Shown here: piece after piece, positions 33,201-60,726 of the stretch
How the letters are laid out: every line of letters begins with the position of its first letter
Position numbering within the stretch: position 1 is the first letter of the stretch
Assembly (NCBI GenBank): GCA_014360565.1
Contig: JACIXH010000004.1
Coordinates: forward strand, 14,429 to 78,428
Origin: Nocardia sp.
Lineage (GTDB): Bacteria > Actinomycetota > Actinomycetes > Mycobacteriales > Mycobacteriaceae
Reading direction: 5' to 3'
DNA: 64,000 nt
Position numbers and translations under genes: made by a program
The notes under the pieces: generated by a model
What the model was told of the DNA's origin: nothing
Databases searched by the model: none
What the model saw: only the letters and a program-made list of their open reading frames with translations

Positions 33201-33424
33201 GATTCTCCTTCGCCGGCTCCCGGCGCTGGGCCGAGGCCGATCATCACGAGGACGGTGGTGAAGCAAAGGGGCTGAAAGCGCGCTGCGATGCCGGTGCGAC
33301 GGCGAACCGGCGACGGTGGATCCAAATCTATTGGTAAAGAATTGGCAAAGCCAGTGTGCCGCACAAACAGTGGGCCTCGCCATAACGCCGGGGGCGGTGT
33401 GGTGTGACCCACAACCACCCCCGT

Positions 33425-35620
33425 TTACACCGGTTCGGCAGCGACCCTGCGAACCTCGTCGAAACCGGAGATCCCGTCGGCGTGGATCTCGATCACCCTC
33501 GCGGTCGCCAGATCGAAGAACAACCCGGTCACCGCGACACCGCGTTCGGCCATCCCGCTGCGAATCGCCGGGTAGTCGACGAGGGTCTGCACCTGGCGGG
33601 CGACATTGACCATGCCGAGTTGGTCGACCGGGCCGAAGCCGGCCGAAGCCGCGGCCTCGGCGACCGGATGGCCGCCGTAGAACGCCGCCAGGGTCGGCTG
33701 CGCGTGGGCGAGCCAGTCGTCGAGCCCCGGCCCGGCCTGAACCTGCCGGTACAGCGCCTCCATCGCACCGCAGGCGCTGTGCCCGCACACCACCACCGAG
33801 CGCACGTCGAGCTTGTCGAGCGCGTAGATCAGCGCGGCCTCGACCGAGACGTCGCTGCCACCGACCGGCACCAGATTGCCGACATTGCGGACGGTGAACA
33901 GATCACCGGGACCGCTGTTGGTGATCACATTGGGCACGATCCTGGCGTCGGCACAGGTCAGGAAGAAGGTGTCGGCGTCGGGCCGGTCGCGCAGCCCGTG
34001 CAGGTGCGGGCGTAGCAGGTGCGCGGGCCCGCGATGGTAGGCGGCGATCCCCGCGGTGATGGCGTCACCCGCACCGCCGGTGCGCCGCCACGGCCCGATC
34101 GCCTCGTCGATCACCTTGCGTGACTGACCGCGTTCGGGTGGTGCGGTATCGGCACGAGCCATCCGCGCGGTACCCATTTCGACGAAATCGACCGAGTCAC
34201 CGGCGAATGCGCGCTGGTCGGCCCATTCAGCGATGGCATCGCAGGCCGCGTGGTCGAGGAAGTCGACGGTCATCTCCACGGTCACGTCGACCCCGGCGGG
34301 CACCTCGGCCAGTTTCCCCGCCAGTCTCGGCAGTGCGAGGAAGGTGCAGGAGCCGTCGATGGTGACCAGCCACCGTTGCGAGCCCGGCACCGCAGCGGCG
34401 GTGATCGTCACCTTGACCACCCGCCACAGCAGCACCGCGAACGCCAGCGCCAGCCCCATCACCACTCCTTCCAGCAGGTTCGCGAACACCACCCCCGCCA
34501 CCGTGACGACATAGACCAGCAGATCACCGGTGCGCAGCGCCCGCTTGATGTGCGCGAGTTTCACCAACTGCATCCCGATCACGATGAGCAGTCCGGCCAG
34601 CGCTGCCTTCGGGATCTTCTCCACCACGCCGACCAGGGCCACGGAGAACACCAGAATCCAGAGACCGTGCAGCACAGCCGAAGCCCGGCTGCGCGCCCCC
34701 GCACGCACATTGGTGGCGCTGCGCACGATCACACCGGTGATCGGCAGCCCGCCGATCAGACCGGACAGCAGATTGGCCGAGCCCTGTCCGAGCATCTCCC
34801 GATCGAAATCGGCGCGCTGACCCTCGCGCATCCGGCCGACGGCCACCGCCGAGAGCAGGCTTTCCACACTGGCGATCAGCGCGATGGTGAGCACCGTGAA
34901 GGCCACATGCCACCAGTCCCCCGTGGGCACCTGCGGTAGCGTCATCGAGTCGAACAGCGAGGCGTTCAACATGATTCGCTCGATCTCGGTGGGCAGCACG
35001 GTCGCCAGCCCGGCACCGGCGAGAATCGCGACCAGCGGTGCGGGCACGAGGCGGATCCGGGCGGGCAGGTACTTCCAGCCGAGCAGGATCGCCATGACCA
35101 CGAGGCCGACGACCACGTCACCCCAGCGCGCGGCACGCAGTTGCGCGGGCAGCGCGCTCAGGTTGGCCAGGCTGGAACTGCCCGACACCCCACCGAGCAG
35201 CACCAGCAGTTGCTGGAGCGCGATCGTGATGCCGATGCCGGCGAGCATCGCGTGCACCACCACCGGCGCCACCGCCAGTGCGGCCCGCGCGATCCGGCTG
35301 AGCCCGAACAGGATCTGCAGTACACCCGCCGCAGCGACAATGAAACAGGTTGCTCGCCAGCCGAATTGCGCAATCGTCTCGGCGACCACCACCGTCAGCC
35401 CCGCGGCGGGCCCACTCACCTGCAGCGGGGACCCACCGAGTAAACCGGCCACCACACCGCCGACCACGGCGGCGATCAATCCGGCGGCGACCGGCGCACC
35501 GGAGGCCACTGCGATGCCGATCGAGAGCGGCAGCGCCACCAGGAAGACCACCACGGACGCGGGAAGATCGTGGCGCAGAACAGATTTCCATCGAGGGCCC
35601 AGATCGTTGTCGGTAGCCAT
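33425..35620 (-). CDS. SulP anion transporter - beta-carbonic anhydrase fusion, copy B
   Basis: DLPASVVVFLVALPLSIGIA, TCADAR, GHSACG; start inferred from an RBS identical to copy A. Confidence 0.92.
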   Translation of the reverse strand: MATDNDLGPRWKSVLRHDLPASVVVFLVALPLSIGIAVASGAPVAAGLIAAVVGGVVAGLLGGSPLQVSGPAAGLTVVVAETIAQFGWRATCFIVAAAGVLQILFGLSRIARAALAVAPVVVHAMLAGIGITIALQQLLVLLGGVSGSSSLANLSALPAQLRAARWGDVVVGLVVMAILLGWKYLPARIRLVPAPLVAILAGAGLATVLPTEIERIMLNASLFDSMTLPQVPTGDWWHVAFTVLTIALIASVESLLSAVAVGRMREGQRADFDREMLGQGSANLLSGLIGGLPITGVIVRSATNVRAGARSRASAVLHGLWILVFSVALVGVVEKIPKAALAGLLIVIGMQLVKLAHIKRALRTGDLLVYVVTVAGVVFANLLEGVVMGLALAFAVLLWRVVKVTITAAAVPGSQRWLVTIDGSCTFLALPRLAGKLAEVPAGVDVTVEMTVDFLDHAACDAIAEWADQRAFAGDSVDFVEMGTARMARADTAPPERGQSRKVIDEAIGPWRRTGGAGDAITAGIAAYHRGPAHLLRPHLHGLRDRPDADTFFLTCADARIVPNVITNSGPGDLFTVRNVGNLVPVGGSDVSVEAALIYALDKLDVRSVVVCGHSACGAMEALYRQVQAGPGLDDWLAHAQPTLAAFYGGHPVAEAAASAGFGPVDQLGMVNVARQVQTLVDYPAIRSGMAERGVAVTGLFFDLATARVIEIHADGISGFDEVRRVAAEPV

Positions 35621-35822
35621 CATTCTCCTTCGCCGGGAGCGCGCCCCCGGTTCATCGGTCGAACATGCACTGGCAAGAAAAGCGACGCACTCGCAACAGC
35701 GGTGACACTGCGAACGGCTTCGTGGAGCTCGGACTCATGACGCGAAGACCGCGACAATGGTAAAGAACTTCCCAAGCGCTAGGAAAGCTTTTCGGGAAGA
35801 TTGTGACCAATCGCGGCCGATT

Positions 35823-44431: not shown

Positions 44432-46537
44432 TCAGTCCACGGCCGCGGCGCCGGTCCGAGCCGGCGTCGCCGCGTCGGTCTTCACGGGAGCCCCCGGCCA
44501 CCACACCTTGTCGCCCAGCAGCGCGAACAGCGCCGGGACAACGAGCGTGCGCACCACGAACGTATCCAGCAGGATGCCGATGCCGACCACGATGCCCAGC
44601 TGGGTCAGGGTGATCAACGGCAGCACACCGAGCACACAGAACACCGCAGCGAGGACGACCCCGGCGCTGGTGATCACGGCCCCGGTCGAGGCGACGGCAC
44701 GCACCATCCCCTGGGTGGTGCCGTGCGCGCCGGCTTCCTCGCGCGCCCTGGTCACCAAGAAGATCGTGTAGTCCACCCCCAGCGCCACCAGGAACAGGAA
44801 ACCGAACAGCGGCACGTTGGTGTCCAGTGCGGGGAACCCGAAGACCGTGCCACTGATCCAGCTGCCCGCGCCGAGCGCGGCGAGCGCACTGAGCACCGTG
44901 ACGCCGACGAGCAGCACGGCGGCGGGCACCGCGCGCAACAGCACCAGCAGCACCAGCAGCACGACGGCGAGAATCAGCGGTATGACCAGTGCTTGGTCTC
45001 GGCGAGCAGCGTCACGGATGTCGAGCGCTTCGGCGTCTGCCCCGCCGACCAGCGCCTCGGCGCCGGGCACCGCACCGACCGCCGTCCTGATCGCCGTGAT
45101 GGTGGTGAAGGCCTCGTCCGAACCCGGTGCCGCGTCGAGGACGACCGACCAGCGTGTCGAACCGTCCCCGGAGGTGCCGGTGGCCGTGGCGCGCGAAACA
45201 CCCTGCACGCCATCGAGTGCCGACTGCATCCGGTCGGTAGCCGTACTCCGCGCGATCACCACAGCCGGATCCGAGGCGCCGGACGGGAAGTGTTCGGCCA
45301 GCGTCTGCAGCCCGTCGACCGACTCGGCCTCGACCCGGAACTGCTCGGTGCGCGAAAGCCCGATATCGGTAGTCGCGAGCCCGGTCGCGAAGACGATCAG
45401 CACCGCCGATGCCGCCCCGGCCACGACGGCCGGGCGTCGCACCACCCGCTTGGCGACGTTGGCCCAGACGCCGTGCTCGGCCGCGTCGCGACCGTCCGCT
45501 TGCGGCACGAACGGCCAGAAGATCCGCCGTCCGCACAGTGCCAGCGCGGGCGGCAGTGCGGCGAGCACGAAGATCAGTGCCACCACGAGCCCGGCGGCCG
45601 CGAACGCGCCGAGGCTGCGGGTGTTGGGCAGCAGCGCGAGCAACAGCGTCAGCAGGGCGAGGACAACGGTGACATTGCTGGCGACGATGGCGGGCGCGGC
45701 ATGACGCACCGCTGCTCGCAACGCCGCTCGATGATCGGTGTGGCGATGGAGTTCGTCGCGATACCGCGACACCAACAGCAGCGCGTAATTCGTGCCGGCT
45801 CCGAACACCAGAACGCTGGTGATGCCGGAGGTCGAACCGTCGAACGTGAGCCCGGTGAGCTCGGCCAGCAGCATGCCGACACTGGTGGCGACGCGATCGG
45901 CCAGGCCGACCACCGTCAACGGCACCAGCCACAGCACCGGCGAGCGATAGGTGAGAATGAGCAAGGCCATCACCACGAGCGCGGTCACGATCAGCAGCAG
46001 CGTGTTGGCACCGGAGAAGGAGTTGGCGATGTCGGCGCCGAAAGCGGGTCCGCCGGTGATCTGCACGCGCAGCGAATCGGGTAGCCCGGTGGTGACATCG
46101 GTGCGCAGCTCGCTGACACGGTCGGTGAGCGCAAAGCCGTTGAGCTGCGCGGACACCGGAATCTGGGCGAGCGCGGCTCGCGTGTCGGGAGCGGGGATCA
46201 CCCGGGCGCCCTCGGCCGAGGCAACGCCGGCGCGAGTGAGCGCCGCGTCCAGTGCCGCGAGATCGGCGGGTGTCAGGGTGGCGCCGTCGACGCGCGTGGC
46301 GACCATGATCGCGGCGGCCGTTCCGGCATCGGGAAACCGCGCGGCAGCCTCGGCTGCCGCAGCCGATTCCGCCGATCGCGGCAGTGACATCGGGGCCTGG
46401 CCCGCGCTGTCGTTGCTGCCCGCCAGCCCCATCACAGCCATGGCGGCCGCGATCACCACGAGCAGTACCGCCCACGACCGACGACCGGTGACCAGCCCGG
46501 CGAACCTGTCCCAACCGTTTCTGTCGCTCACTCGCAT
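44432..46537 (-). CDS. MMPL/RND family transporter
   Basis: GAGTNYALLLVSRYRDEL, ALGVDYTIFL, GILLDTFVVRTLVVPAL. Confidence 0.92.
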   Translation of the reverse strand: MRVSDRNGWDRFAGLVTGRRSWAVLLVVIAAAMAVMGLAGSNDSAGQAPMSLPRSAESAAAAEAAARFPDAGTAAAIMVATRVDGATLTPADLAALDAALTRAGVASAEGARVIPAPDTRAALAQIPVSAQLNGFALTDRVSELRTDVTTGLPDSLRVQITGGPAFGADIANSFSGANTLLLIVTALVVMALLILTYRSPVLWLVPLTVVGLADRVATSVGMLLAELTGLTFDGSTSGITSVLVFGAGTNYALLLVSRYRDELHRHTDHRAALRAAVRHAAPAIVASNVTVVLALLTLLLALLPNTRSLGAFAAAGLVVALIFVLAALPPALALCGRRIFWPFVPQADGRDAAEHGVWANVAKRVVRRPAVVAGAASAVLIVFATGLATTDIGLSRTEQFRVEAESVDGLQTLAEHFPSGASDPAVVIARSTATDRMQSALDGVQGVSRATATGTSGDGSTRWSVVLDAAPGSDEAFTTITAIRTAVGAVPGAEALVGGADAEALDIRDAARRDQALVIPLILAVVLLVLLVLLRAVPAAVLLVGVTVLSALAALGAGSWISGTVFGFPALDTNVPLFGFLFLVALGVDYTIFLVTRAREEAGAHGTTQGMVRAVASTGAVITSAGVVLAAVFCVLGVLPLITLTQLGIVVGIGILLDTFVVRTLVVPALFALLGDKVWWPGAPVKTDAATPARTGAAAVD

Positions 46538-46547
46538 CACGCCGAAA

Positions 46548-46629: not shown

Positions 46630-47145
46630 GTGGGCGACGACACCGCGGACACCGACCCGGCCGCCGATCGGGCAGGTCTGGAGACCGGGATAGCTCGGGA
46701 TCTGCGTGCCCTGACCGCGATCTCCGAACAGATCGGCCACGTGTTCGCGCGCTCGAACGACCTGCGCCCGAATGATTTCCGGGCCCTGATGCACGTCGCG
46801 ACGGCCGACGCCGAGGGCGCGCCGCTGAGTGCGGGCCAGCTGAGCAAGCTGATGGGCGTCTCCGCGCCCGCCGTCACCTACCTCGTCGAGCGCATGATCG
46901 AATCCGGGCATCTCGAACGGGTACCCGATCCGGTGGACCGGCGGCGGGTGCACCTGAGCTATACCGATCAGGGCATGACGGTCGCGGCCGGATTCTTCGG
47001 GCCGCTCAGCGCGCGCACCCGCACCGCCCTCGCCGACCTACCCGACGACGACTTGGCGGCCGCCCACCGCGTGCTCGTCGGTGTCACGGCCGCGCTGCGC
47101 GAGTTCTATACCGAGCTCCCGCAGTCGGCGCGCCCCGAGGAGTAG
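46630..47145 (+). CDS. MarR family regulator
   Basis: LSAGQLSKLMGVSAPAVTYLVERM, DPVDRRRV. Confidence 0.9.
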   Translation: MGDDTADTDPAADRAGLETGIARDLRALTAISEQIGHVFARSNDLRPNDFRALMHVATADAEGAPLSAGQLSKLMGVSAPAVTYLVERMIESGHLERVPDPVDRRRVHLSYTDQGMTVAAGFFGPLSARTRTALADLPDDDLAAAHRVLVGVTAALREFYTELPQSARPEE

Positions 47146-47197: not shown

Positions 47198-48565
47198 TCA
47201 GCCCATGCCGTCGACGGCCGGGAGCGCCTCGGCTGCCCTGACCGCCGCGGCGAGCTCGTCGGCGGTGTGACGGAGCTGGTCGGGCGTGTGTTCGGAGGTC
47301 AGGAACAAGCGCAGGCGTTCGCTGCCGACCGCAACGGCCGGTGCGGTGATCGAGCCCGCGTAGATGCCCTGCTGGAGCAACCGCGCCGCCACATAGCCTG
47401 CGCGAAATTCCTGCGGCACCAGCACCGGGCAGATCGGCGTGCCCTCGGAAACACCGAGATCGAGTTCGCGGTCGACGAGCAAGGCTCGCAAGAGCGCAGC
47501 ATTGGACCACAGGCGGGTCAGGCGTTGCGGCTCCCTGTCCAGGATGTCCAGCGCGGCCAGGGCGGCGCCGATCGTGGACGGCGCCGGTCCCCCGCTCAGC
47601 ATCGCCACGCCGGGGGCGCAGACCTTCATCGCGCCGATCAGGTCGGCGTCACCGGCGATGAATCCGCCGCAACTGCCCAGCGCCTTGGACAGGGTGCCCA
47701 TCCAGATGTCGACCGCGTCGCCGGGCAGGGCCGAATGCTCACGGATGCCCCGGCCGGTTGCGCCGAAGACACCGAGCGAATGCGCCTCGTCGACCATTAC
47801 CGCACAGTCGAATTCTCTTGCCACCGCGGCAATTTCGGCGACCTTCCCGACGGTCCCGTCCATGCTGTAGTGGCCTTCGATCACCACCAGCGCGCGATCG
47901 AAATTGGCGCGCGCCATCCGCAGCACCGACCGCAGTGAATCGGGGTCGTTGTGACGGAAGGTGAGTTGGCGCGCACCCGACCACTGCACACCCGAGACCA
48001 CGCTGCGGTGGATCAGCGAATCGCAGATCGCGACATCGCCGTCGCGCAGCAGGAACCCGATCACCCCGGCGTTGGTGAGATACCCGCTGGTGGTGACCAG
48101 CGCGTCGGCCACGTCGTACATCCCGGCCAGGCGCTGCTCGAGTTCGCCGTAGAGCGGGATCTCCCCGGCGACGATGCGTGAGGCCGAGGCCGAGGCGCCG
48201 TAGGTGTCGAGCGCGTCCTTGGCAGCCTGCACCACTTTCGGATGATTGCTCAGACCCAGATAGTTGTAGGCGCCGAAGTTCACCAATTCGCGCCCTTGCC
48301 AACGGATCACGGTGTCATTGGCCCCCTCGCGCAGCAGAAAGACCGGATTCGGCATGCCGTATTGTTCGTGCACCGCCGCGATCGACGCGCGCTTGCTCGC
48401 CATCGCCGCCACCTCGGGGTGATCGGCGAACTGACGGCCGGGCCCCCGCCGCGCCCGTCGGGTGGCCGGCGCCGGGGCGGACGACGCCCGACGGTCCGAA
48501 CCCACCCCTGCTCCGGCCGCGTCGGTGAGCAGTTTCCTGGCCAGTTCCCGGGCCGATTCGCTCAT
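47198..48565 (-). CDS. PLP-dependent alpha-oxoamine synthase (AONS/SPT family, class I/II aminotransferase fold)
   Basis: NFGAYNYLGL, DSLIHRS, FRHND, EGHYSMDG, DEAHS, GTLSKALG; ATGA overlap with the PKS. Confidence 0.92.
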   Translation of the reverse strand: MSESARELARKLLTDAAGAGVGSDRRASSAPAPATRRARRGPGRQFADHPEVAAMASKRASIAAVHEQYGMPNPVFLLREGANDTVIRWQGRELVNFGAYNYLGLSNHPKVVQAAKDALDTYGASASASRIVAGEIPLYGELEQRLAGMYDVADALVTTSGYLTNAGVIGFLLRDGDVAICDSLIHRSVVSGVQWSGARQLTFRHNDPDSLRSVLRMARANFDRALVVIEGHYSMDGTVGKVAEIAAVAREFDCAVMVDEAHSLGVFGATGRGIREHSALPGDAVDIWMGTLSKALGSCGGFIAGDADLIGAMKVCAPGVAMLSGGPAPSTIGAALAALDILDREPQRLTRLWSNAALLRALLVDRELDLGVSEGTPICPVLVPQEFRAGYVAARLLQQGIYAGSITAPAVAVGSERLRLFLTSEHTPDQLRHTADELAAAVRAAEALPAVDGMG

Positions 48566-51500
48566 GCCCGCACCCCCACGATCGCTTCGGCCACCTTCGC
48601 ACCGGCCTGTTCGAGACTGAACGAGCGACCCATCTGCAGCGTCAGCAGGTCCACCCCGAGCGACTTCGACACCAGCGCACCGAATTCCACCGCCATCAGC
48701 GAATCCAATCCCAGTTCCGGGACCGGCACACTCAGATCTATCGAGTCCGCCGCGATGCCCATCACCTGTGCGAGCTGTTCGGCCAGCATGTAGGCCACCA
48801 CCTCGCCGCGTTTGTCCTCGTCCAGTTCGGCGAGTTGGGCGCGCAATCGTGTCGCGGCTGAATCATCTTGCGCGGCAGCGGCGATCATGGCCGCCAGGCG
48901 GCCGGTCTGGGCGAAGAACGGCGCGGTGGCGTCGACTTTCGCCCAGTCGATCGGGATGATCGAGGCCTGCGTCGCGCCCAGGCGCAAGGCCTGCTCGAGA
49001 TAGTGCGTGCCCTCGTCCATGTCGAGGGGGTCGAAGCCGGTGGTGCGCAGGTACCGGGTGATGTTCTCGTCGGCGGCGGCCATCCCGCCGCCGGACATGT
49101 GTCCCCACCCGACCGCGAGCGCGACCCCGCCTGCTCTGACCACCGAATCGGCCATCGCCTGTAGAGCGGAATTGGCTGCGGTGTAGGCGAATTGGCCGAT
49201 CGCGCCGAACATCGTCGAACCGGAGGAGTACAGCACGAACTGGTCGAGCCGCACGCCTGCCGCGTCGAGACCGGCGGTCAGGGCGCGCACGCCGTCCACT
49301 TTCGGCCGGTACACCACCGACAAGCTGTCGATGTCCATCACCGTCGCCCGCTTGTCATCGATCACCCCCGCCGTGTGGAACACACCGCGCAGCGGGTGCT
49401 CGGGGGCGTGTGCTCGTTCGATCACCGCACCCACTGCCGCCGCGTCGGTGACGTCCACCTGCTCGGTGACCACCGTGACGCCCTGCTGTTGCCACGCCGA
49501 GAGCTGGCTGAGCGCCGCCTCGGTCGTGGGGCCACTACGCCCGAGCAGTGTCACACGACGGGCGCCGTGACCGACCAGCCAGCGCCCGGTGGCCAGGCCG
49601 AAGGCGCCGAAACCACCGGTGATCAGATAGTTCGCCGCCGCGTCGATGCGCACCCGCGGCAGAGCGGGCCGGACCAGGGGTTCGGTTTCGGTCAGGTCGA
49701 GCGCGATCCGGCCGGTGCCGGTCGAACGCGCGACCGCCTCGAAGGCCTCGCCCACCGCGCCGGTGCCATAACTGGTGAACGGCAGCGCCCGGTAGGTCCC
49801 GTCGTCGAGCCGGTTGTTGATCCGGCGCACCAGGTCGAGCACACTCGCGCGCCGCACGCGAGCCATCCGGTCCAGATCGAAGGAGAAGTAGGCGATGTTC
49901 TTGTCGAACGCGCCCAGTTCCAGCACCCCACCGGCATAGATGTCGGCCTTGCCGATCTCGACGATGCGGCCGAATTCGGCGATCATCGTGAAGTTCTGGC
50001 GTTGCAGCTCGCCCGGCGCGGTACTGAGGATCACGTCCACTCCGCGGCCGTCGGTGAGCGCGAGCACCTCGTCGACGAGGGTGAGCGAACGCGAACCGAG
50101 CACATGGTCGGCGCCCTCGGTCAGCACACGTGCGCGGCGTTGCTCGGTACTCGCGGTGCCGATCACGATCGCACCGTGTTGTTTCGCGATCTGCACGGCG
50201 GCGGTGCCCACACCACCGGCGGCGCCGTGCACGAGCACCGTCTCGCCCGGGCGCACTCGAGCGAGCTCGAGCAGGGAGTGCTCGGCGGTGGCGAAGGCCG
50301 TGCCGCTCGTGCAGCGGCCGGGATCGGTACCCGGGCGGACGCGGGCGAGCAGGTCGGCGTCGGTGGTGTGGAATCTGGCGATCATGCCCTTGGAGGTCAC
50401 CGTCACTTCGTCGCCGACCGCCACATCGGTGACACCGGGGCCGACACGGACCACGGTCGCGGCCCCTTCCATGCCGGGCACCGTGCCGAAATACGTCGGC
50501 GCCAGCTCCTGCTCGCCCAGGACGCCGATCACCTTCAACGCGTCCTTGTAGTTCAAGCCGACCGCACGCATGCGCAGCTCGACTTCACCCGCCTCGGGAG
50601 CGCGGCGTTCACAACGCCGCCAGCCCAGCCGCGCGAACGTGCGCGAGCGGGGCAGTTCCAAGACGAAATTGGCCTCCGGATCGGTGAGTGGTTGTGCGGT
50701 GTCGAGGTTTTCGAGATGCTGCGGCAGAGTGCGGTCGACCACGGTGACCCAGCGCAGTCCGTCGCGCAGGATCACCTCGTCGCTGCGGTCGTAGGTGAAT
50801 GCGCCGGGCACGGTGAGCTCAGCCGCCAATTCGGTCGCCGTCACCCGGGCGTCGATATCGACCAGTCGCCACCGCAGCCGGGACTGTTCGTTGAGCAGCA
50901 CGCGGCGCGCGCCCGCCACTGCGGCCTGGGTGGGAAGCGGCGGTGCCGGGTCGGCCGGATGCGCGTAGGCGTGCGCCGTGACGACGGTCGCGTACAGCGA
51001 CCCGTCGCCGGTCATCGGAACCTCGGTTCCGAGCTCGTTCGCGCGAGCGTCGAGGAACCCCTCCAGGGTCACCGCGATGCGGCGCAGCGTCCAGAGCGTG
51101 GCGATGTCGCCGTCGGCCGCGTCGCCGGCAACCACGCAGACGTGCAGGCGCCGCACCTCCTCGACAGCGACGATGTCGCACAGCCGACCGGTCAGCACCG
51201 CTTCCAGCTCCGTGTCGGCGGGGTCGAGCGCGAGTGCGGCCGAACCGGCCGCACTCGCGCACACGGCCTTGTGTACCCGTTCGACGCGCTGGTCTGCGCC
51301 CTCGCCGTAGCCGAGGACCAGCGTGAACAACCCCTCGCTACCCGGCAGTGCGGTCGTGTCGACCGGATCGCGCAGCTCCCAGCGTTCTTCGTAGAAGAAG
51401 TCCGTCATCCGCTGTAGCGGGCCCGCGCCGGGAGTCAGTGACGCGAACCGCACGCCGCGCAACTGCAGGCATACGGCATTGCCCGCACCGAGCAGGTCGA

Positions 51501-54500
51501 TGTCGGCGGTCGGGTTGTCGTCTCGGGAGAGCCTGGTCAGCACCGTGACTTCGGCGGGCAGCGCGGCCAGTCGGCGCACCGACCGAACACCGACCGGCAC
51601 CATCGCCCCCTCACCGGCGCCACTGTGTCCGGTGAGCAGTGCCGCGACCGTCTGCAGTGCCGCGTCGACCACGGCGGGATGAGCCAGATACGCAGTATCG
51701 CGCGCGATCTCGCCGTCCACCTGGGCTACAACGGTGTTCGCGGCGAATCGGATCGCGGTGACCCGCTGAAACGTCGGGCCGTAGTCGAGCCCGGCGGCCG
51801 CCAATCCGCCGTAGAAGTCGGCGGGTTCGATCGCGGCCATCGCGGTGAGGTCGGGGACATCGGCGACGATCGGCGCATAGGAGCCTTCGACGAGGCGCCC
51901 GGTCGCATGCACGGTCCAGACCGATCCGGCAGCCCCGCGGGAGCGGATGGTGAACCGACGCGTCGAATCCTCCAGGTGGAGTTCGACAATCGGCGCGTCA
52001 CCGCCGTCCACGATCATCGGCGCGACGAACCGCACCTGCTCGAGTCCCACCTGTTCGGACTCGGCCCGTACCGCTGCGGCGCTGAGCGCGGCATCCAGAT
52101 ACCCCGCGCCCGGCATCAGCGTCGTCCCGCCGACAACGTGGTCGGCCAGCCACGGTTGCGCCGCGATCGACAGGTTCAGCCGCCAGGTGGTCGTGTCGTC
52201 GGGATGCCGATCGCCCAGCATCGGGCGCCCATCGGGGGTGCCGTGGCGTTGCACCCGCATCTCGGGCAGTTCCGAGCGCAGCACCGTGCGCTGCCAGGGA
52301 TAGCGTGGCAGCTCGATATGTGGTGTGGGACCGGGACTTCCGGCGAACAGGACGTCGATGTCGAGGGCGCCCGCGGCGTAGAGGTCGACCAGCACCTGGC
52401 GCAGGCTGTGCGCATCGTGGCGTTTGCGGTGCAGGGTGGCGATGGTCGTGCCCGTCTCGCCCGCACCGATCAGGATTTCCCGAATATTGGCCCCGAGCAC
52501 CGGATGTGGGCCGACTTCGAGGAACACCCGGTGGCCTGCCTTGACCACGGCGGTGACCGCCGCCGCGAATCGCACCGGCCTGCGGACATTGGCGCACCAG
52601 TAGTCGGCGTCCCAGTCGGCGCCGGTCACCAGCGTGCCGGTGACCGTGGAATACAGCGGGAGACGGGGTTCGGCGACGGTGATCCCGGCCAGCTCGGCGC
52701 GCAGTTCGTCGAGGATCGGGTCCATCAAGGGACTGTGATAAGGCACCTCGACCTGTAGATGCCGGGTGAAAACGCCTTGCGCGGTCAGTATCTCGGCGAT
52801 CTCGGCGAGCCGGTCGACGGCCCCGGCGAGCGTGACCGCCGAGGGGCTGTTGATCGCCGCGATGTCGACGGCGTCCTCCGCCGCGACGAGTTCTCCGGCC
52901 TCGTCCGGTCCGAGCCCGACCGCCAGCATGCCCCCGGTGCCTGCCGTGGTGGCCTGCAGCCGCGCGCGGTGGTAACTGACCAGCACGGCGTCACGCAGGG
53001 ACAGCATGCCGGTCAGATACGCGGCGGCCACTTCGCCGACGCTGTGCCCGACCACGACCGCGGGCTCGATACCTCGCTCCCGCAGCGTCGCGAAGAGCGC
53101 GACCTGCACCAGGAAGTTGGCAGGCTGCGCGACAGCGGTCGAGGTCACCGACGATTCCGCTTCCGGCCGCAGCAGTTCCTCGATGATCGACCAACCGGCC
53201 ACAGCGGCGAACTCGGTGTCGACGCGCTCGGCCTCGGCAGCGAAAACGCCGTCAGCCATGAGCAATTCGCGTGCCATCCCCCACCACTGCGGTCCCATAC
53301 CGGTGCAGATGTACACCGGTTCGGCCGCACGCTTGACGACGGTCCGGCCCACCCGGCCCGACCCGGTCGCCAGCTCGATCAGGCCCTGCACCAGTTGGGT
53401 GTCGTCGCCGAATGCGACTCCCGCGCGAACCGGGTGATGATGGCGGCGCCGCCAGGCGGCCTCGGCCAGCAACTGCGGATCAGCGCCGTCGGCGATGCGC
53501 TCGGCCACCCCGCGGGCCAGCTGCCGCACGGCCGCCTCCGAGCGCGCCGACAGCGGCAGGACCCCGAAATGAACCGGCGAGTGGTTCGGCTCGGCGCGCG
53601 GCCGGTACTCCTGCAGAATCGCATGGGCGTTGGTGCCGCCGTAGCCGAACCCGTTGACAGCCACCGCCATCCGCTCGACCTCCGGGCCGACCGGCTCGGC
53701 CTCGGTCAGCAGCCGAATCCCCCACTCCTCGAACGGGATGTCGGGATTGGGCGTCTCCAGCCAGCCCTGCGGCGGGATGGTGCGATGCCGGATCGCCAGC
53801 GCCGACTTGATGATGCCCGCGACACCGGACGCGGCTTCGGTATGCCCCAGCGTCGCTTTCAGCGACCCCACGCCGAGCGAACCCGAGCGACCCGAAGCGG
53901 CACCGTAGGCCCGGCCGATGGCCCGCATTTCGAGCGGATCGCCCACCGGGGTGCCGGTGCCGTGCGCCTCGACATAGGTGACCTCGCGCGCGTCGATCCC
54001 GGATCGCCGAATCACGGTGCGGGCCAGGCTTTCCTGCGCTGCGGCAGCGGGGACGGTAATGGCGGTGGTCCGCCCGTCCTGATTGGCGCCCGTCGCCTTG
54101 ACCACGGCATAGATCCGGTCGCCGTCGCGTTCGGCGTCGACCAGCTTCTTGAGCACCACCACCCCGGCGCCCTCGCCCCGGCCGTAGCCGTCGGCGGCCG
54201 CGTCGAACGGCTTGCTGCGCCCGTCGGCGGCCAGGAATCCGCCCTTGCACATCGTCACGAACGTTTCCGGCTGCACCATCACATTCACGCCACCGGCGAT
54301 CGCCACCTCGCAGTCGCCGTTGGCGATGGCCTGGCAGGCCAGATGCAGCGCTACCAGCGACGACGAACACGCGGTGTCGACCGTGACGGCGGGGCCCTTC
54401 AGGTCGAGCGCGTAGGCCAGCCGGTTCGACAACATCGTGTACGACACACCCACGGCGGTGTGCAGATCGACGTGCGACAGGGCCGCACCGACCGACACCG

Positions 54501-54888
54501 CCAGCTGATCGAGGGTGAACGCGCCCATGTACACCCCGAGCGAGGAGCCCGCGCTGCGCCCGGCCACGCCCGAATCGTCGAGGGCCTCCCAGGCCACCTC
54601 GAGGATCAGCCGCTGTTGCGGATCCATGGCGGTGGCCTCCCGGGGTGAGATGCCGAAGAATTCCGGGTCGAACGCCCACGGATCGCCCGTCATGAAGGCG
54701 GCGCGCTTGGTGTACATGCGCCCGGGAGCGCGCTTGTCACTGTCGTAGTACCGCCGCCAGTCCCAGCGCTCCGCCGGGATCTCGCGCACCCCGTCGCGCT
54801 TGTGGATCACGAAGTCCCAGAACGACTCCGGCGAATCGATACCGCCGGCATAGCGGCAGCCGATGCCGACGATGGCAATGTCAGTCAT
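48562..54888 (-). CDS. type I single-module highly reducing polyketide synthase KS-AT-DH-ER-KR-ACP
   Basis: KS DTACSS/HGTGT/GHTE; AT GHSVG; DH HVVGGTTLMP; ER HGAAGGVG; KR GGFGAFG, VIDD, YTAAN; ACP GLDSL; no TE. Confidence 0.95.
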   Translation of the reverse strand: MTDIAIVGIGCRYAGGIDSPESFWDFVIHKRDGVREIPAERWDWRRYYDSDKRAPGRMYTKRAAFMTGDPWAFDPEFFGISPREATAMDPQQRLILEVAWEALDDSGVAGRSAGSSLGVYMGAFTLDQLAVSVGAALSHVDLHTAVGVSYTMLSNRLAYALDLKGPAVTVDTACSSSLVALHLACQAIANGDCEVAIAGGVNVMVQPETFVTMCKGGFLAADGRSKPFDAAADGYGRGEGAGVVVLKKLVDAERDGDRIYAVVKATGANQDGRTTAITVPAAAAQESLARTVIRRSGIDAREVTYVEAHGTGTPVGDPLEMRAIGRAYGAASGRSGSLGVGSLKATLGHTEAASGVAGIIKSALAIRHRTIPPQGWLETPNPDIPFEEWGIRLLTEAEPVGPEVERMAVAVNGFGYGGTNAHAILQEYRPRAEPNHSPVHFGVLPLSARSEAAVRQLARGVAERIADGADPQLLAEAAWRRRHHHPVRAGVAFGDDTQLVQGLIELATGSGRVGRTVVKRAAEPVYICTGMGPQWWGMARELLMADGVFAAEAERVDTEFAAVAGWSIIEELLRPEAESSVTSTAVAQPANFLVQVALFATLRERGIEPAVVVGHSVGEVAAAYLTGMLSLRDAVLVSYHRARLQATTAGTGGMLAVGLGPDEAGELVAAEDAVDIAAINSPSAVTLAGAVDRLAEIAEILTAQGVFTRHLQVEVPYHSPLMDPILDELRAELAGITVAEPRLPLYSTVTGTLVTGADWDADYWCANVRRPVRFAAAVTAVVKAGHRVFLEVGPHPVLGANIREILIGAGETGTTIATLHRKRHDAHSLRQVLVDLYAAGALDIDVLFAGSPGPTPHIELPRYPWQRTVLRSELPEMRVQRHGTPDGRPMLGDRHPDDTTTWRLNLSIAAQPWLADHVVGGTTLMPGAGYLDAALSAAAVRAESEQVGLEQVRFVAPMIVDGGDAPIVELHLEDSTRRFTIRSRGAAGSVWTVHATGRLVEGSYAPIVADVPDLTAMAAIEPADFYGGLAAAGLDYGPTFQRVTAIRFAANTVVAQVDGEIARDTAYLAHPAVVDAALQTVAALLTGHSGAGEGAMVPVGVRSVRRLAALPAEVTVLTRLSRDDNPTADIDLLGAGNAVCLQLRGVRFASLTPGAGPLQRMTDFFYEERWELRDPVDTTALPGSEGLFTLVLGYGEGADQRVERVHKAVCASAAGSAALALDPADTELEAVLTGRLCDIVAVEEVRRLHVCVVAGDAADGDIATLWTLRRIAVTLEGFLDARANELGTEVPMTGDGSLYATVVTAHAYAHPADPAPPLPTQAAVAGARRVLLNEQSRLRWRLVDIDARVTATELAAELTVPGAFTYDRSDEVILRDGLRWVTVVDRTLPQHLENLDTAQPLTDPEANFVLELPRSRTFARLGWRRCERRAPEAGEVELRMRAVGLNYKDALKVIGVLGEQELAPTYFGTVPGMEGAATVVRVGPGVTDVAVGDEVTVTSKGMIARFHTTDADLLARVRPGTDPGRCTSGTAFATAEHSLLELARVRPGETVLVHGAAGGVGTAAVQIAKQHGAIVIGTASTEQRRARVLTEGADHVLGSRSLTLVDEVLALTDGRGVDVILSTAPGELQRQNFTMIAEFGRIVEIGKADIYAGGVLELGAFDKNIAYFSFDLDRMARVRRASVLDLVRRINNRLDDGTYRALPFTSYGTGAVGEAFEAVARSTGTGRIALDLTETEPLVRPALPRVRIDAAANYLITGGFGAFGLATGRWLVGHGARRVTLLGRSGPTTEAALSQLSAWQQQGVTVVTEQVDVTDAAAVGAVIERAHAPEHPLRGVFHTAGVIDDKRATVMDIDSLSVVYRPKVDGVRALTAGLDAAGVRLDQFVLYSSGSTMFGAIGQFAYTAANSALQAMADSVVRAGGVALAVGWGHMSGGGMAAADENITRYLRTTGFDPLDMDEGTHYLEQALRLGATQASIIPIDWAKVDATAPFFAQTGRLAAMIAAAAQDDSAATRLRAQLAELDEDKRGEVVAYMLAEQLAQVMGIAADSIDLSVPVPELGLDSLMAVEFGALVSKSLGVDLLTLQMGRSFSLEQAGAKVAEAIVGVRA

Positions 54889-54931
54889 GTGCGTTCCTCA
54901 CGTTGGTTCGTTCGCGAAAGCCGAGCGCCGG

Positions 54932-55552
54932 TCAGATCGGCTGCGGGCGGCGAACCATGATGTTGAGTTCCGGGCCGGACGCGCCGAGCCGCACGGCGCC
55001 GACGCGCTCGTTGCCCAGTGCCCGGTAGTAGCCGACGTTGGCGTCCTTGCAGATGCCGCAGATCGCCGCGCCCTCCCGGTCGGCTCGGTTCGTGAACGAC
55101 GCGTACATCGCGCGGCCGATGCCGCTGCGCTGCAGGGCCGGATCGGCACCGAGGTAGACGTGGAACAGGTGCGGCTCGACCGGAGCGGCACGGTCCATCG
55201 CCGCGTCCACCTCCGAACCCCGCCGCACCGCCGGGCCCATCGCCGCGAGAAACTCCGGCCCCGCGAGCATGTCGCGCAGGCCGCCCGGCCGGTACCCCTG
55301 CGGATACCACAGCAGCACGCCAACGACGCGGTCGCCCAGTACCGCCACTTCGGCGCCGCCTGCAGGCAGAAAGCGGTGCCTGATCATGGCGCGCACCATG
55401 CGCGGGGCTCGACGCCGCCGCACGGCCTCGTCCGGGAACACGTACTCGTCGACGGGATCGTCGTGTGCGAAAGCGGCGGCCAGTACCCGCACCATCGAGT
55501 CGATATCGGCCCGCGTCGCCGGGCGAACGAGCGGGATCGCGGTGGAACTCAA
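54932..55552 (-). CDS. GNAT N-acyltransferase (puromycin N-acetyltransferase/Rv0133-like)
   Basis: VRPAT, LAAAFAHDDP, QRSGIG motif A, NVGYYRALG. Confidence 0.85.
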   Translation of the reverse strand: MSSTAIPLVRPATRADIDSMVRVLAAAFAHDDPVDEYVFPDEAVRRRRAPRMVRAMIRHRFLPAGGAEVAVLGDRVVGVLLWYPQGYRPGGLRDMLAGPEFLAAMGPAVRRGSEVDAAMDRAAPVEPHLFHVYLGADPALQRSGIGRAMYASFTNRADREGAAICGICKDANVGYYRALGNERVGAVRLGASGPELNIMVRRPQPI

Positions 55553-55921
55553 AGCTGTTGTACCTCAATCGATCTGCCGGTCTCCGCGTCGCGGACAGCG
55601 TTCGGCACACGGTTGGTCGTTAGGCTATCTCAGGACACAGATCCTGCCGCCGCATTCGAACGACTTTCCAGCTTTTGTCAGGTCGTCAGGTGTCAAGCGG
55701 TGCTGACAGGCGCTCAGGCCAGGCACATTCGGGGTGTACGCCGGGCTCGGCTGCGGCACTGCGCAGCCCGGCGCCCTCCGAGGTCTCATCTGAAATGAAA
55801 ATGTGTCTGAAAGTGTCGGCGCAACCGACCGCGAGTGGGGAGAATTGGCCACGACGGCTCGGCGGGTTTCACCACCTGTCGCGTCGGCGCGAATCTCCTT
55901 CGGCAACAGAGGAAATCAACG

Positions 55922-57289
55922 ATGAACAAGTTGTCGAGAGCCACCACGGTGACGCTGGTTGCCGCCGTCGTCGCAACTGCGGGCGCCGGCGTCGCACATG
56001 CGGAAACCCCCGGCTCACAGTCCTGCACCCCGTACACGGCGATTCTCGCGCCGGGGACGTGGGAGACCACGCTCGACGCCGATCCCGAGATCCCCGTCGG
56101 GATGCTCCGGCCCGTCGGCGACGGCCTGCAACGCCAGTTCGGCCGTGACATCAGCGTGCTCTACATACCTTATGCCGCAAGCGCTTTCGACCTGGGTCTG
56201 AGCTACGCGGAGTCCCTGAGCACCCTGGAATCGGGCTTGCGCCAAACGCTGCGTGGCCTGTGCGACTCGACCCAGGTCGTCCTCGCCGGCTACAGCCAGG
56301 GTGCCGACGGAATCGGCGACCTCGCCACCGAGATCGGCAACGGCGACGGACCGATCGGTGCCGATCGAGTGGTCGGTGTCGGACTACTGGCCGATCCGCA
56401 TCGCGATCCGAACACCACACTCTCCCTGGGCACTCCGCAGCCCGGTCACGGCATAGCCGGAACGCGCAGCCGGGATTTCGGCGCGTTGACCGATCGGGTT
56501 CGCACCCTGTGTGCCGACGGCGACCTGTACTGCTCCCTCGATGCCGCCACCTCCCCGTTCCTCGCCGTGTTGGGCCGGGTCCTCAGCGGTGATCCCGCAC
56601 CGATCGCGGACGTCATCCCCGCCACGGTCGATCCCAGCGTCCTGATCGCGCAAGCCGTCACCATGGGCGCAGGCTGGACTGCCACCGCGGCGAACCTGCC
56701 GACCATTGCCGACAACCTCACCCGGCTCCCGGAATTACTCGCGGCGGGCGACATTCGCGGCGCTCACCTCACCGCGCGTGCGCTGAACGTTGCCCTGGCC
56801 CCGTTGGTCCAGGCCGCCGCCGGTGTGGACAGAGCCCTTGTCGCCCAGGTCATCCGCGCGGCCGCCACCGTCGATCCCTCTGGTTGGACCTCAGGCGTCA
56901 GCGTCATCGCCGACGCTCTCGTGCACATCGATCTTCTGAGCATCGCCGAGGGCACCGGCAGAATGCAGGAGATCCTCTGGCGTGCAGTCGAATCCCTCGA
57001 TCGCAACGATCCCCTCGCCGCGGCCGCCGACCTGGCGGGCTTCGCCGCCACCGGCGCCGACCTCACCGGCTCCGTACTCGGCCCCGTCGCCGCCGGTATC
57101 CGAGCCGACCTCCACGCCACCACCCGAACCCTGCTCAGCATGACCGACCCCGCCACCATCGACGAACTCGTCCAACTGGGCCGCCAAGGCGTGGACATGG
57201 CCAACTTCTATGCTTCCGCCGCCCACATCGACTACGGCGACGACGCCGCGCTCCTGCTGAGCTACCTGAGCTCCCGAGTCGGGTCGTAG
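55922..57289 (+). CDS. secreted cutinase-family alpha/beta hydrolase
   Basis: Signal peptide ending AHA, PGTWE, GYSQG, LADP, CADGDLYC. Confidence 0.83.
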   Translation: MNKLSRATTVTLVAAVVATAGAGVAHAETPGSQSCTPYTAILAPGTWETTLDADPEIPVGMLRPVGDGLQRQFGRDISVLYIPYAASAFDLGLSYAESLSTLESGLRQTLRGLCDSTQVVLAGYSQGADGIGDLATEIGNGDGPIGADRVVGVGLLADPHRDPNTTLSLGTPQPGHGIAGTRSRDFGALTDRVRTLCADGDLYCSLDAATSPFLAVLGRVLSGDPAPIADVIPATVDPSVLIAQAVTMGAGWTATAANLPTIADNLTRLPELLAAGDIRGAHLTARALNVALAPLVQAAAGVDRALVAQVIRAAATVDPSGWTSGVSVIADALVHIDLLSIAEGTGRMQEILWRAVESLDRNDPLAAAADLAGFAATGADLTGSVLGPVAAGIRADLHATTRTLLSMTDPATIDELVQLGRQGVDMANFYASAAHIDYGDDAALLLSYLSSRVGS

Positions 57290-58918: not shown

Positions 58919-59551
58919 TTACCCTCGCGCAGCGGCGGGTTCCCTTGCCGCGGTGGGCCGCAACGCCAGGATTCGGCGTTCGGCAGCCGTCGCCGTCGCA
59001 GCCCATTCCGGCCGCAATGCCGCGTAGGTGCACACGTCGCGCCACCGACCCTGGGTTCGGTACAGCTGCCGCAGCCGCGCCTCCGGCGTCAAGCCCACTC
59101 CCGCCATCACCGTGTCCATCACCGGATGATCGTGCCGATGCCCCGCCCACACCCGGTGGATCCCGAGCGGCCCGAAGGCGAAGGCCGCCATGAGCCGCCC
59201 CGCCTCGATACCACCCGCACGCAACGCCCCTTCCGGAACGACGACCAGCCCGCCGAGCATCGCGTTGCTGCCGAAATCCTCTACCAGCAGGCTGATGGTG
59301 CCGACCATGGTGTCCTCGCCCGGTGCCGTGATCGCCAGCGTGTACTTGCGGCGCGAGATCTCGCCGCGGGCACACAGGGCGGCGTCGAACGACGCAGCGG
59401 CCGCCTGGACACCCATGCTGTCGGTGCCCATATATCGGGTCAGGTGCGGATCGGTGAAGATCCGCTGATAGACGCCGACATCACCGGCACGCAGATCACG
59501 CAACCGCAGCCGCGAGCCGACCAGTTCCACATCGCGCAGGTCGATCGTCAA
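58919..59551 (-). CDS. GNAT, RimJ/RimL-like
   Basis: RLRLRDL, AFGPLGIHRVWA, GLTPEARLRQ...GRWRD; TTGA overlap with ThiF. Confidence 0.82.
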   Translation of the reverse strand: MTIDLRDVELVGSRLRLRDLRAGDVGVYQRIFTDPHLTRYMGTDSMGVQAAAASFDAALCARGEISRRKYTLAITAPGEDTMVGTISLLVEDFGSNAMLGGLVVVPEGALRAGGIEAGRLMAAFAFGPLGIHRVWAGHRHDHPVMDTVMAGVGLTPEARLRQLYRTQGRWRDVCTYAALRPEWAATATAAERRILALRPTAAREPAAARG

Positions 59552-60726
59552 CGGACTTCCTCCATCGTGCGCGCGAAGGCCGGAGCGATCTGTTGTCCGA
59601 GCGCGGGTATGAGCTCGTCGAGGTCGATGTAGGTTCGCCCGGACGGGATCAGCTCGCCGAGCAGGATCCGGCGGGCGGTGTCGGTCACCAAGGCGCCGCC
59701 GAGCATCACCCCGGAGGCCAGTTGTGGCCAGCTGGACAGGCTCCGGCCGATCTCGTCGACGGCGTCGCGCATCGCCGGACTCAGCCGCGGCTCATCGACC
59801 ATCGCCAGCAGCAACGACAGCAGCTCGCCCCGGTCCATCCTCGCGACATCGGACGCGGTCGACCCGCCGGTGCGGCCGTGGAACAGCGGGCGATCGAGTT
59901 CGAGATCGAAGCGCTCCACATCCAGCAAGCCGCGATCATTGGTGTCCATCAGCACCGGGACCCCTCGGCGCCGCGCGTACTCACGCGCAGCGACTTTCGC
60001 CCACACCGTGTCGCATTCCTCCACCAACAGATCCAGCGGCCCGGCGCCGCCCACTCCATCGAAGAACGGCCCGATCGATTCCTCGGTCAGCCCGTCGACG
60101 AACACCTCGATGTCGAGATAGGGGTCGATCTCGAACATCTGGCGCGCCGCCAGCACAGCCTTGGCCACCCCCAGATCGCTGACCCCGGCCCGCAACCGGT
60201 TCAGATTCGACAGCCCGACGGTGTCGAAGTCGGCCAATCGGAACGATCCGCCGACCCCTTCCATCGCCAGCGTCACCGCCGCGCTGCTGCCCACCGACAG
60301 CCCGATTACCCCGATCCGCCGCTCGCGCAGGTCTCGCTGCTGCGCTCGCTCGATCTTGTTGCGGTTGCGATCGGTGCGCACCCGCTGGAAACTCTCGCTC
60401 GGCAGCACATGCACCAACCGGCCGTTCCACGGATAGAACACCCATGTTCCCCACTGCCACAACGGAGTCTCGCCGCTGATCCGACGGCGCGACGCGGCCA
60501 GCGAGCTCGTCGAGTGCGCGAGGGCGGGTTCCTCGCAGCGGATCAGTTCGTCGAGTTGATCTTCGATCGTGTCGTGCACCGCGCTGACAGAACTCGACGC
60601 TGCCAGCGCTTCCAGATCACGCAGTCCCTCCCGGCTCGATGCATCGAGGAGCACAGGACGGAAATGCGATGTTGCAGCGCGGGGCGTGAGTACCGCCGGG
60701 CGCAGAACCGAGTGTTGCCGAACCAT
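59548..60726 (-). CDS. ThiF/MoeB family adenylyltransferase, Rv1355c (MoeY)-like N-terminal part
   Basis: WVFYPW, RTDRNRNKI, IGLSVG, LADFDT..SNLNR, EECD, DVERFD, WPQLAS. Confidence 0.87.
   Translation of the reverse strand: MVRQHSVLRPAVLTPRAATSHFRPVLLDASSREGLRDLEALAASSSVSAVHDTIEDQLDELIRCEEPALAHSTSSLAASRRRISGETPLWQWGTWVFYPWNGRLVHVLPSESFQRVRTDRNRNKIERAQQRDLRERRIGVIGLSVGSSAAVTLAMEGVGGSFRLADFDTVGLSNLNRLRAGVSDLGVAKAVLAARQMFEIDPYLDIEVFVDGLTEESIGPFFDGVGGAGPLDLLVEECDTVWAKVAAREYARRRGVPVLMDTNDRGLLDVERFDLELDRPLFHGRTGGSTASDVARMDRGELLSLLLAMVDEPRLSPAMRDAVDEIGRSLSSWPQLASGVMLGGALVTDTARRILLGELIPSGRTYIDLDELIPALGQQIAPAFARTMEEVR

Follow-up and report, generated by a model that had tools for sequence, protein, structure and literature searches.

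A GNAT-fold acyltransferase conserved with a polyketide synthase and an alpha-oxoamine synthase in Nocardia: a candidate route to N-acylated, ceramide-like lipids

What is made by a fully reducing polyketide synthase (PKS) that lacks a thioesterase and is encoded between genes for a small GNAT acyltransferase and an alpha-oxoamine synthase (AOS)? These three genes occupy 8.4 kb of a 64,000-nucleotide stretch of Nocardia sp. DNA (hereafter the window; assembly GCA_014360565.1, contig JACIXH010000004.1, positions 14,429 to 78,428). A preliminary description, made from the letters alone, proposed that the PKS iteratively builds a long chain, that the AOS releases it onto Ser, Ala or Gly and that the GNAT then N-acylates the amine or confers self-protection. 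Sequence and structure comparisons point, with moderate confidence, to one conserved unit whose likely product is a long-chain 2-amino-3-ketone carrying an N-acyl group, a lipid resembling a 3-keto-ceramide. The core of this unit has a characterized precedent, as the iterative PKS PfSgaA and the AOS PfSgaB of Pseudomonas fluorescens MYb115 make C24-C28 sphinganines (Peters et al., 2025; PMC12134224). The new element is the GNAT as a third gene beside this known core.

In 200 Nocardia genomes, searched separately with the AOS and the GNAT protein (thresholds of at least 56% and 45% identity, respectively, set by hand at clear score gaps, with four partial matches added by hand), the AOS occurs in 71 genomes (76 copies), about a third of the total. 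The GNAT orthologue is present in 67 genomes (73 copies), all of which are among the 71 AOS carriers, and in none of the 129 AOS-less genomes, a co-conservation on which the preliminary description had staked its proposal. For 64 of the 76 AOS copies the GNAT gene sits immediately ahead of the PKS, in the same orientation and 6.7-7.8 kb upstream of the AOS. Among the remaining copies, three have the GNAT downstream behind a modular PKS and four are cut off by contig ends, their GNAT being found on a different contig. The flanking genes vary between loci, which suggests that the trio moves as a unit and, together with the tight spacing, argues for linkage beyond chance. Outside Nocardia, 11 of 364 family genomes contain this AOS clade, with a GNAT orthologue no more than 4 kb away in at least ten of the 11; there the GNAT is located downstream, either after the AOS or after an MmpL gene. 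Three gene orders in three genera thus suggest a functional tie of the GNAT to the PKS-AOS pair. At least four weaker GNAT matches (157-162 bits vs at least 246 bits) were found in non-Nocardia genomes without this AOS clade.

In the window, open reading frames, Pfam domains and sequence motifs bear out the layout first described: three co-oriented genes on the minus strand in the order GNAT, PKS and AOS, with 43 bp between the GNAT stop and the PKS start, and an ATGA overlap of the PKS stop and AOS start, by which the AOS is predicted to be translationally coupled to the PKS. The GC content at third codon positions is 0.84-0.87 in the trio genes, matching other genes in the window. FadD, PapA and biotin genes, which the preliminary description had not seen nearby, were likewise not found among the 43 other window open reading frames scanned with Pfam, which are part of those present.

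The PKS consists of one complete KS-AT-DH-ER-KR-ACP module with catalytic motifs in all domains, and no thioesterase was found by Pfam. Its AT motifs (GHSVG and VPYHS) read as the malonyl and not the methylmalonyl type, so that a straight chain is expected. In a KS tree (58 rows, FastTree, midpoint root), the PKS falls inside a Mycobacteriales clade (support 1.0) that is separate from five Mas/Pks2-type KSs and closer to proteobacterial AOS-linked PKSs (0.94). A paralogous PKS in the same genome (L165:4109-14399, contig C384), 58% identical, also nests within this KS clade; the gene after it encodes a PapA-like condensation enzyme, and the locus has a divergent MmpL but no AOS. This PapA-like partner in place of an AOS suggests that such PKSs depend on an acyl acceptor encoded downstream and indicates that the family swaps these partners. 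Two orphan groups of ~2,100-aa KS/AT/DH/ER/KR/ACP proteins (~2,130 aa) appear as putative mycocerosate synthases in a published inventory of Nocardia PKSs (PMC4035055); from accession order only, the window PKS is probably group #30 of that survey.

The AOS retains the lysine that binds pyridoxal 5'-phosphate (PLP) and its catalytic partners (K294 with H186, D259 and H262), and serine palmitoyltransferases are its nearest relatives of solved structure (SPT; 3a2b, E 4e-71). Nevertheless, none of the BioF, Kbl, ALAS and SPT models in NCBIfam scores it above its cut-off; the BioF model gives 305 bits where 426 are required. The closest named homologues, found in Nocardia (87% identity in N. ignorata, followed by N. 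nova, N. cyriacigeorgica, N. seriolae and N. farcinica) and then in Mycobacterium and Rhodococcus, carry the database name 8-amino-7-oxononanoate synthase. The same genome encodes a second AOS on another contig, which is 33% identical to the trio AOS and represents BioF, located in a bioA-bioF-bioD operon (bioA and bioD labels read from translations); the trio AOS is therefore distinct from the biotin gene. A quick IQ-TREE search on 56 rows, after 15 further rows had been dropped for thinning, placed the AOS inside a 51-row, mostly PKS-linked clade (SH-aLRT 99). E. coli SPT, BioF and Kbl, S. meliloti HemA and the genome's own BioF fall outside this clade, within which a separate subclade holds the Mycobacteriales copies (support 100). 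E. coli BL21 spt and yghO served as references, as canonical SPTs above the cut-off were not found in the ten genomes tried. The AOS of Pseudomonas locus L020, which stands in for SgaB (nine of ten PfSgaB motifs match, by eye), is 46% identical to the trio AOS. The site equivalent to V79 of ThAOS is Ser in SPT and BioF, Val in Kbl and Thr in ALAS (PMC11906848). S129 of the trio AOS occupies this gate site, with Ser there as in SgaB, which favors Ser or Ala over Gly; serine is our best guess for the amino acid substrate, with alanine next and glycine least likely of the three originally proposed.

The GNAT is only weakly matched by Pfam (best E 0.012, below the cut-off), and its assignment, which agrees with the original label, is based on its match to PDB entry 7k09 (E 2e-9), a puromycin N-acetyltransferase (PAC), and on the fold. 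A structure model (pLDDT 90.5) superimposes on 7k09 with a TM score of 0.80, and comparisons with 7k09, 7k0a and 2qec from Corynebacterium glutamicum gave TM scores of 0.75-0.81 at 24-27% identity. The CoA loop (QRSGIG) is intact, and acidic residues are kept in the acceptor region (D16, D31/D32 and D116). The orthologues share an invariant DP..FP motif, C168-K169 and N172; the PAC stretch LETS is replaced by GICK in the trio GNAT, and C168-K169 is invariant in 35 of 35 orthologues. Matches in the ESM Atlas consisted of generic actinobacterial GNAT clusters only. The bacterial ceramide synthase bCerS also has a GNAT fold, and the preliminary description likened the trio GNAT to it. This comparison did not hold at the level of homology: no relationship to YghO was detected (hhalign probability 0.2%, E 0.31; profile score -2 bits) with E. 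coli BL21 YghO as the sole reference, and no yghO homologue was found in the genome itself, which is 85% complete. By sequence, the GNAT and the known bacterial ceramide synthase are not homologous, and the former could be an analogue only.

Five GNAT matches in the 200 Nocardia genomes sit in very long open frames. G169, G199, G203 and G248 each encode a second, modular PKS with a KS-AT-DH-KR-ACP module that ends in the GNAT as its C-terminal domain, in a single frame and after the last ACP, at the place where a thioesterase would sit. The ACP serine of the fused proteins is intact, and no thioesterase was found in these four loci. G189 shows the same PKS-GNAT arrangement interrupted by frame breaks. 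The modular PKS-GNAT gene is located upstream of PKS-AOS in G169 and G199 and downstream in G203 and G248. The fusion junctions are of three different kinds, and fused and unfused copies are intermixed in the GNAT tree, if with weak support, on which grounds fusion probably occurred at least twice. In the simplest reading of these loci, two chain builders would pair with two acyl acceptors, the iterative PKS feeding the AOS and the modular PKS feeding the GNAT, to yield a two-tailed amide. The PKS-tethered GNATs have lost basic residues of the CoA loop; this was weighed as a hint at an acyl-ACP donor and rejected, as some free-standing orthologues lack these residues as well.

To an alternative account we give appreciable, if minority, weight: the fusions could reflect incidental spacer loss, the modular PKS would prime the iterative PKS or feed the AOS, and the tethered GNAT would still use acetyl-CoA. 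Two relatives with the same modular PKS (G273 and G331) keep the GNAT separate, with its own start ~150 bases after the module, and G273 has a thioesterase gene after the AOS. Furthermore, G203 retains the last module only, which like the frame breaks of G189 looks like decay, and a docking-like C-terminal helix is retained between ACP and GNAT. The fused form was also not seen in two independent libraries: a search of proteins of 365-2000 aa, lengths that at most roughly reach those of the fused proteins, gave no GNAT relatives of greater length, and none of the five clusters above 230 bits in a 50%-cluster library was long. Against it, the in-frame junctions are of three different kinds, the GNAT stays with the last module whether this lies upstream or downstream of PKS-AOS, and matching each of the two chain builders with one of the two acyl acceptors is simple. 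This account concerns the fusions only and is compatible with all three steps proposed below for the window trio.

The proposed pathway to an N-acylated 2-amino-3-ketone would comprise three steps. First, as suggested by the complete PKS domains and the SgaA precedent, the PKS would iterate with malonyl-CoA and fully reduce the chain in each round, yielding a saturated very long acyl chain on the ACP. Second, the AOS would condense this acyl-ACP with an amino acid under loss of CO2 to form the 2-amino-3-ketone, freeing the chain in place of a thioesterase, as expected from AOS family chemistry and from SgaB. Third, the GNAT would N-acylate the new amine, a role suggested by its co-conservation, fold and fusion. 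Acylation would precede any reduction, as the operon lacks a ketosphinganine reductase: no short-chain dehydrogenase/reductase (SDR) of the KDSR-like SgaC type was found by Pfam in the trio operon or conserved beside the trio in related loci, and such a gene was seen only in the sister system described below. The product may thus stay a 3-ketone unless a distant SDR acts on it. The donor in the plain trio is presumed to be an acyl-CoA, with acetyl and long-chain groups about evenly balanced; an acetylated product would be a short-chain ceramide analogue. In the one Nocardia lineage with fusions, the GNAT tethered behind the last ACP of the modular PKS would move that polyketide chain to the amine. 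The mechanism of the preliminary description fits everything tested, with the exception that glycine has become the least likely substrate. Genes, motifs, linkage, clades and fusions are observed directly, from which we infer the product, the amino acid and the acyl donor. The most far-reaching form of this proposal is tentative and, on balance, doubtful. It holds that mycolic-acid bacteria, among them N. farcinica, N. cyriacigeorgica and N. seriolae, make ceramide-like lipids via PKS, AOS and a ceramide synthase of puromycin-acetyltransferase fold, the third to be recruited independently, which in one lineage has become a new PKS end domain releasing a polyketide as an amide onto a sphingoid base, with both tails polyketide-made.

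Several observations weigh against this pathway or parts of it. The nearest GNAT structures are small-molecule acetyltransferases, which together with the intact CoA loop favors acetyl over long-chain transfer. The AOS pocket differs from that of PfSgaB (GHYSMDG for GIYSMDG, MLSGGP for FLYSVG and YAGSI for NAQPI), so that serine is not assured and another amino acid is possible, and some AOS subgroups carry Thr or Val at the gate site. The 51 rows of the AOS clade were picked by their likeness to the query and are mostly PKS-linked, and the tree is a quick one whose careful search is unfinished. With the queries used, the GNAT was not detected for five AOS copies in four of the 71 AOS-bearing Nocardia genomes, or among the matches listed for one genome of another genus with this AOS clade. 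Conversely, one orphan GNAT copy (L164:12771-16430, G091) has no PKS-AOS within the 20 kb examined. A sister Nocardia system, with an AOS 44-51% identical, lacks this GNAT in nine of nine loci (L126-L134). As the genomes are kin, their co-occurrence does not amount to 67 independent events. In addition, the fused forms are missing from both libraries mentioned above, and no reported product was found for the trio.

The true product might instead be the free amino-ketone or amino-alcohol, a sphingoid-like inhibitor, with the GNAT acetylating it for self-protection or storage as PAC does with puromycin. The best sequence and fold match of the GNAT is PAC itself, its CoA loop is intact, a few genomes retain PKS-AOS without the GNAT, and SgaAB release free sphinganines. 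A resistance gene would, however, be expected in non-producers too, yet none of the 129 AOS-less Nocardia genomes has an orthologue, and fusion behind the ACP of a modular PKS is unexpected for a resistance enzyme. We consider this explanation improbable. Even less credit is given to a GNAT that acts elsewhere, in chain initiation as a CurA-like decarboxylase/loader or in protein acetylation, with the AOS-derived amine used otherwise by reduction or cyclization. GNAT-like domains do act in PKS initiation (PMC10006239), and the gene precedes the PKS in most Nocardia loci. These points contrast with the amine-acetyltransferase fold and conserved acidic acceptor region, the C-terminal and not N-terminal position of the fused GNAT, and the variable gene order. 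Finally, a mycocerosate-synthase-like PKS making a branched cell-wall acid beside a spare biotin or threonine enzyme, as the shared Mas/Pks2 domain order, the survey label and the database names of the homologues would have it, is largely refuted by a Pks2 model (NF041183) score of 1061 bits against a cut-off of 2400, the separate KS clade, an AT motif that is not of the methylmalonyl type, and the bioA-bioF-bioD operon elsewhere, with its BioF sharing only 33% identity with the AOS.

By its sequences the trio is a sister lineage of SgaAB, and the PKS-AOS pair alone is not new. Like SgaAB, it pairs a single-module reducing PKS without thioesterase with an AOS that is encoded directly after it and belongs to the same PKS-linked clade, and compared with Pseudomonas locus L020 the PKS is 33-38% and the AOS 46% identical. 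In contrast to SgaAB, the trio AOS and KS belong to separate, well supported Mycobacteriales subclades, the PKS is ~350 aa shorter between DH and ER, the AOS pocket is altered and the operon lacks a KDSR-like reductase. The trio also has a dedicated GNAT, which none of 72 Proteobacterial or other distant loci (L014-L085, some incomplete) shows, and the SgaAB products are free or phosphoglycerol sphinganines, not N-acylated ones. Along with SgaAB, the RkpA/RkpG and WcbR/WcbT loci are the nearest described counterparts. SgaB is serine-specific and is probably followed by the reductase SgaC; a table of 6,101 homologous clusters includes two from Nocardia and one from Mycobacteroides, with neither genus named in the main text (PMC12134224).

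The bacterial ceramide pathway consists of Spt, bCerS (YghO, CC_1154) and CerR (PMC9386255, PMC11334938), and in Caulobacter N-acylation before reduction has been proposed (PMC9386255). The trio would resemble it in forming the amino-ketone first and in this proposed order of N-acylation ahead of reduction. It differs in an AOS outside the canonical SPT models and branch, a chain from a dedicated PKS, and a GNAT of 206 aa without homology to the 380-aa YghO. Another parallel for the last two steps is the alaremycin pathway of Streptomyces sp. A012304, where the AOS AlmA uses Ser or Ala and the adjacent AlmB N-acetylates the alpha-oxoamine in vitro (PMC12006855). AlmA, however, is ALAS-like, takes succinyl-CoA and works without a PKS. 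The GNAT shares its fold with PAC but is bound to a lipid operon and is PKS-fused in some genomes. Compared with the mycobacterial Mas/Pks2-type synthases, which go with PapA and MmpL, the trio PKS has the same domain order, and its own-genome paralogue has a PapA-like partner and an MmpL; in contrast to the mycobacterial enzymes, it belongs to a different KS clade, scores below the family cut-off and carries an AT that reads as malonyl-type.

The preliminary description knew of no characterized example of the trio. This still applies to the three genes together: by title or abstract start of the top matches, they are undescribed in the literature searched, a coverage that largely leaves out subscription journals. 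No paper combining Nocardia, polyketide synthase and oxoamine synthase, or Nocardia, sphingolipid and serine palmitoyltransferase, was found, and the available text of PMC3751702, PMC12153302, PMC11334938 and PMC10006239 does not describe the trio. The PKS-AOS core, by contrast, has a precedent in the PfSgaAB study (PMC12134224), which the preliminary description had not cited, and is not as new as assumed there. If the proposed pathway is correct, the product of a common orphan Nocardia PKS, so far classed as a putative mycocerosate synthase, is a sphingolipid-like lipid that contains nitrogen. It would also extend the PKS route to sphingoid bases reported in 2025 from free bases to N-acyl products, via an enzyme unrelated to the known ceramide synthase. 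To our knowledge, Nocardia and the mycolic-acid group are not known to make sphingolipids. The carriers include species that infect people and fish, and for host cells a mimic of ceramide could be important. Work on PKSs would gain from the ACP-GNAT fusions a small release domain that forms amides. With only three genes in the unit, the question is directly testable.

Table 1. Genes of the trio and domains of the PKS, in window coordinates.
Feature	Position	Strand	Details
GNAT N-acyltransferase, puromycin N-acetyltransferase fold	54932..55552	-	206 aa, TTG start, own small orthologue group
Single-module fully reducing type I PKS, KS-AT-DH-ER-KR-ACP, without thioesterase	48562..54888	-	2108 aa
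KS domain	53605..54885	-	C174, H309, H349
AT domain	52390..53316	-	GHSVG, VPYHS
DH domain	51424..52224	-	H917, D1075
ER domain with NADPH motif	49696..50631	-	HGAAGGVG
KR domain	49093..49635	-	TGGFGAFG, Y1902
ACP domain	48604..48816	-	S2063
PLP-dependent AOS, PKS-linked clade	47198..48565	-	455 aa

Other genes near the trio were considered as members and rejected. MmpL (44432-46540) and MarR (46630-47145) genes are absent beside the six closest loci (L086-L091), and a cutinase-like gene (55835-57289) is likewise not conserved. An MmpL gene adjoins the PKS-AOS-GNAT unit in other genera, though not beside its closest relatives.

Variant arrangements were observed in related loci. In eight Nocardia loci (L118, L120-L125 and L013), a cytochrome P450 gene adjoins the GNAT and the AOS carries Thr at the gate site; this subgroup may form a hydroxylated product from another amino acid. 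The sister Nocardia system (L126-L134, e.g. L133:3017-17298; also L011 and L012) encodes TetR, a SnoaL-like protein, PKS, AOS with a Val gate, a UnbV/ASPIC FG-GAP protein, a membrane protein, DUF1702 and an SDR, which may reduce the ketone. This system borrows accessory genes of the enediyne-cluster type. A third arrangement in the family (L139 and L141-L145, e.g. L143:5713-12994) combines an acyl-AMP ligase, a free ACP and a fused KS-AT-ACP-AOS protein of ~1,450 aa, often with a thioesterase. At L159:3-17208 (G106), two further copies of this PKS and AOS fragments come after PKS-AOS, and a GNAT orthologue was not found in that genome. The orphan GNAT of L164 follows an acyl-CoA synthetase-like gene and has the conserved CK changed to CE. 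Elsewhere in the window, two tandem genes (30981-35623) each encode a sulfate-permease/carbonic-anhydrase fusion, and a ThiF-like gene of the Rv1355c family, matching the first half of the model only, overlaps a second GNAT of the Acetyltransf_3 type (58919-60726).

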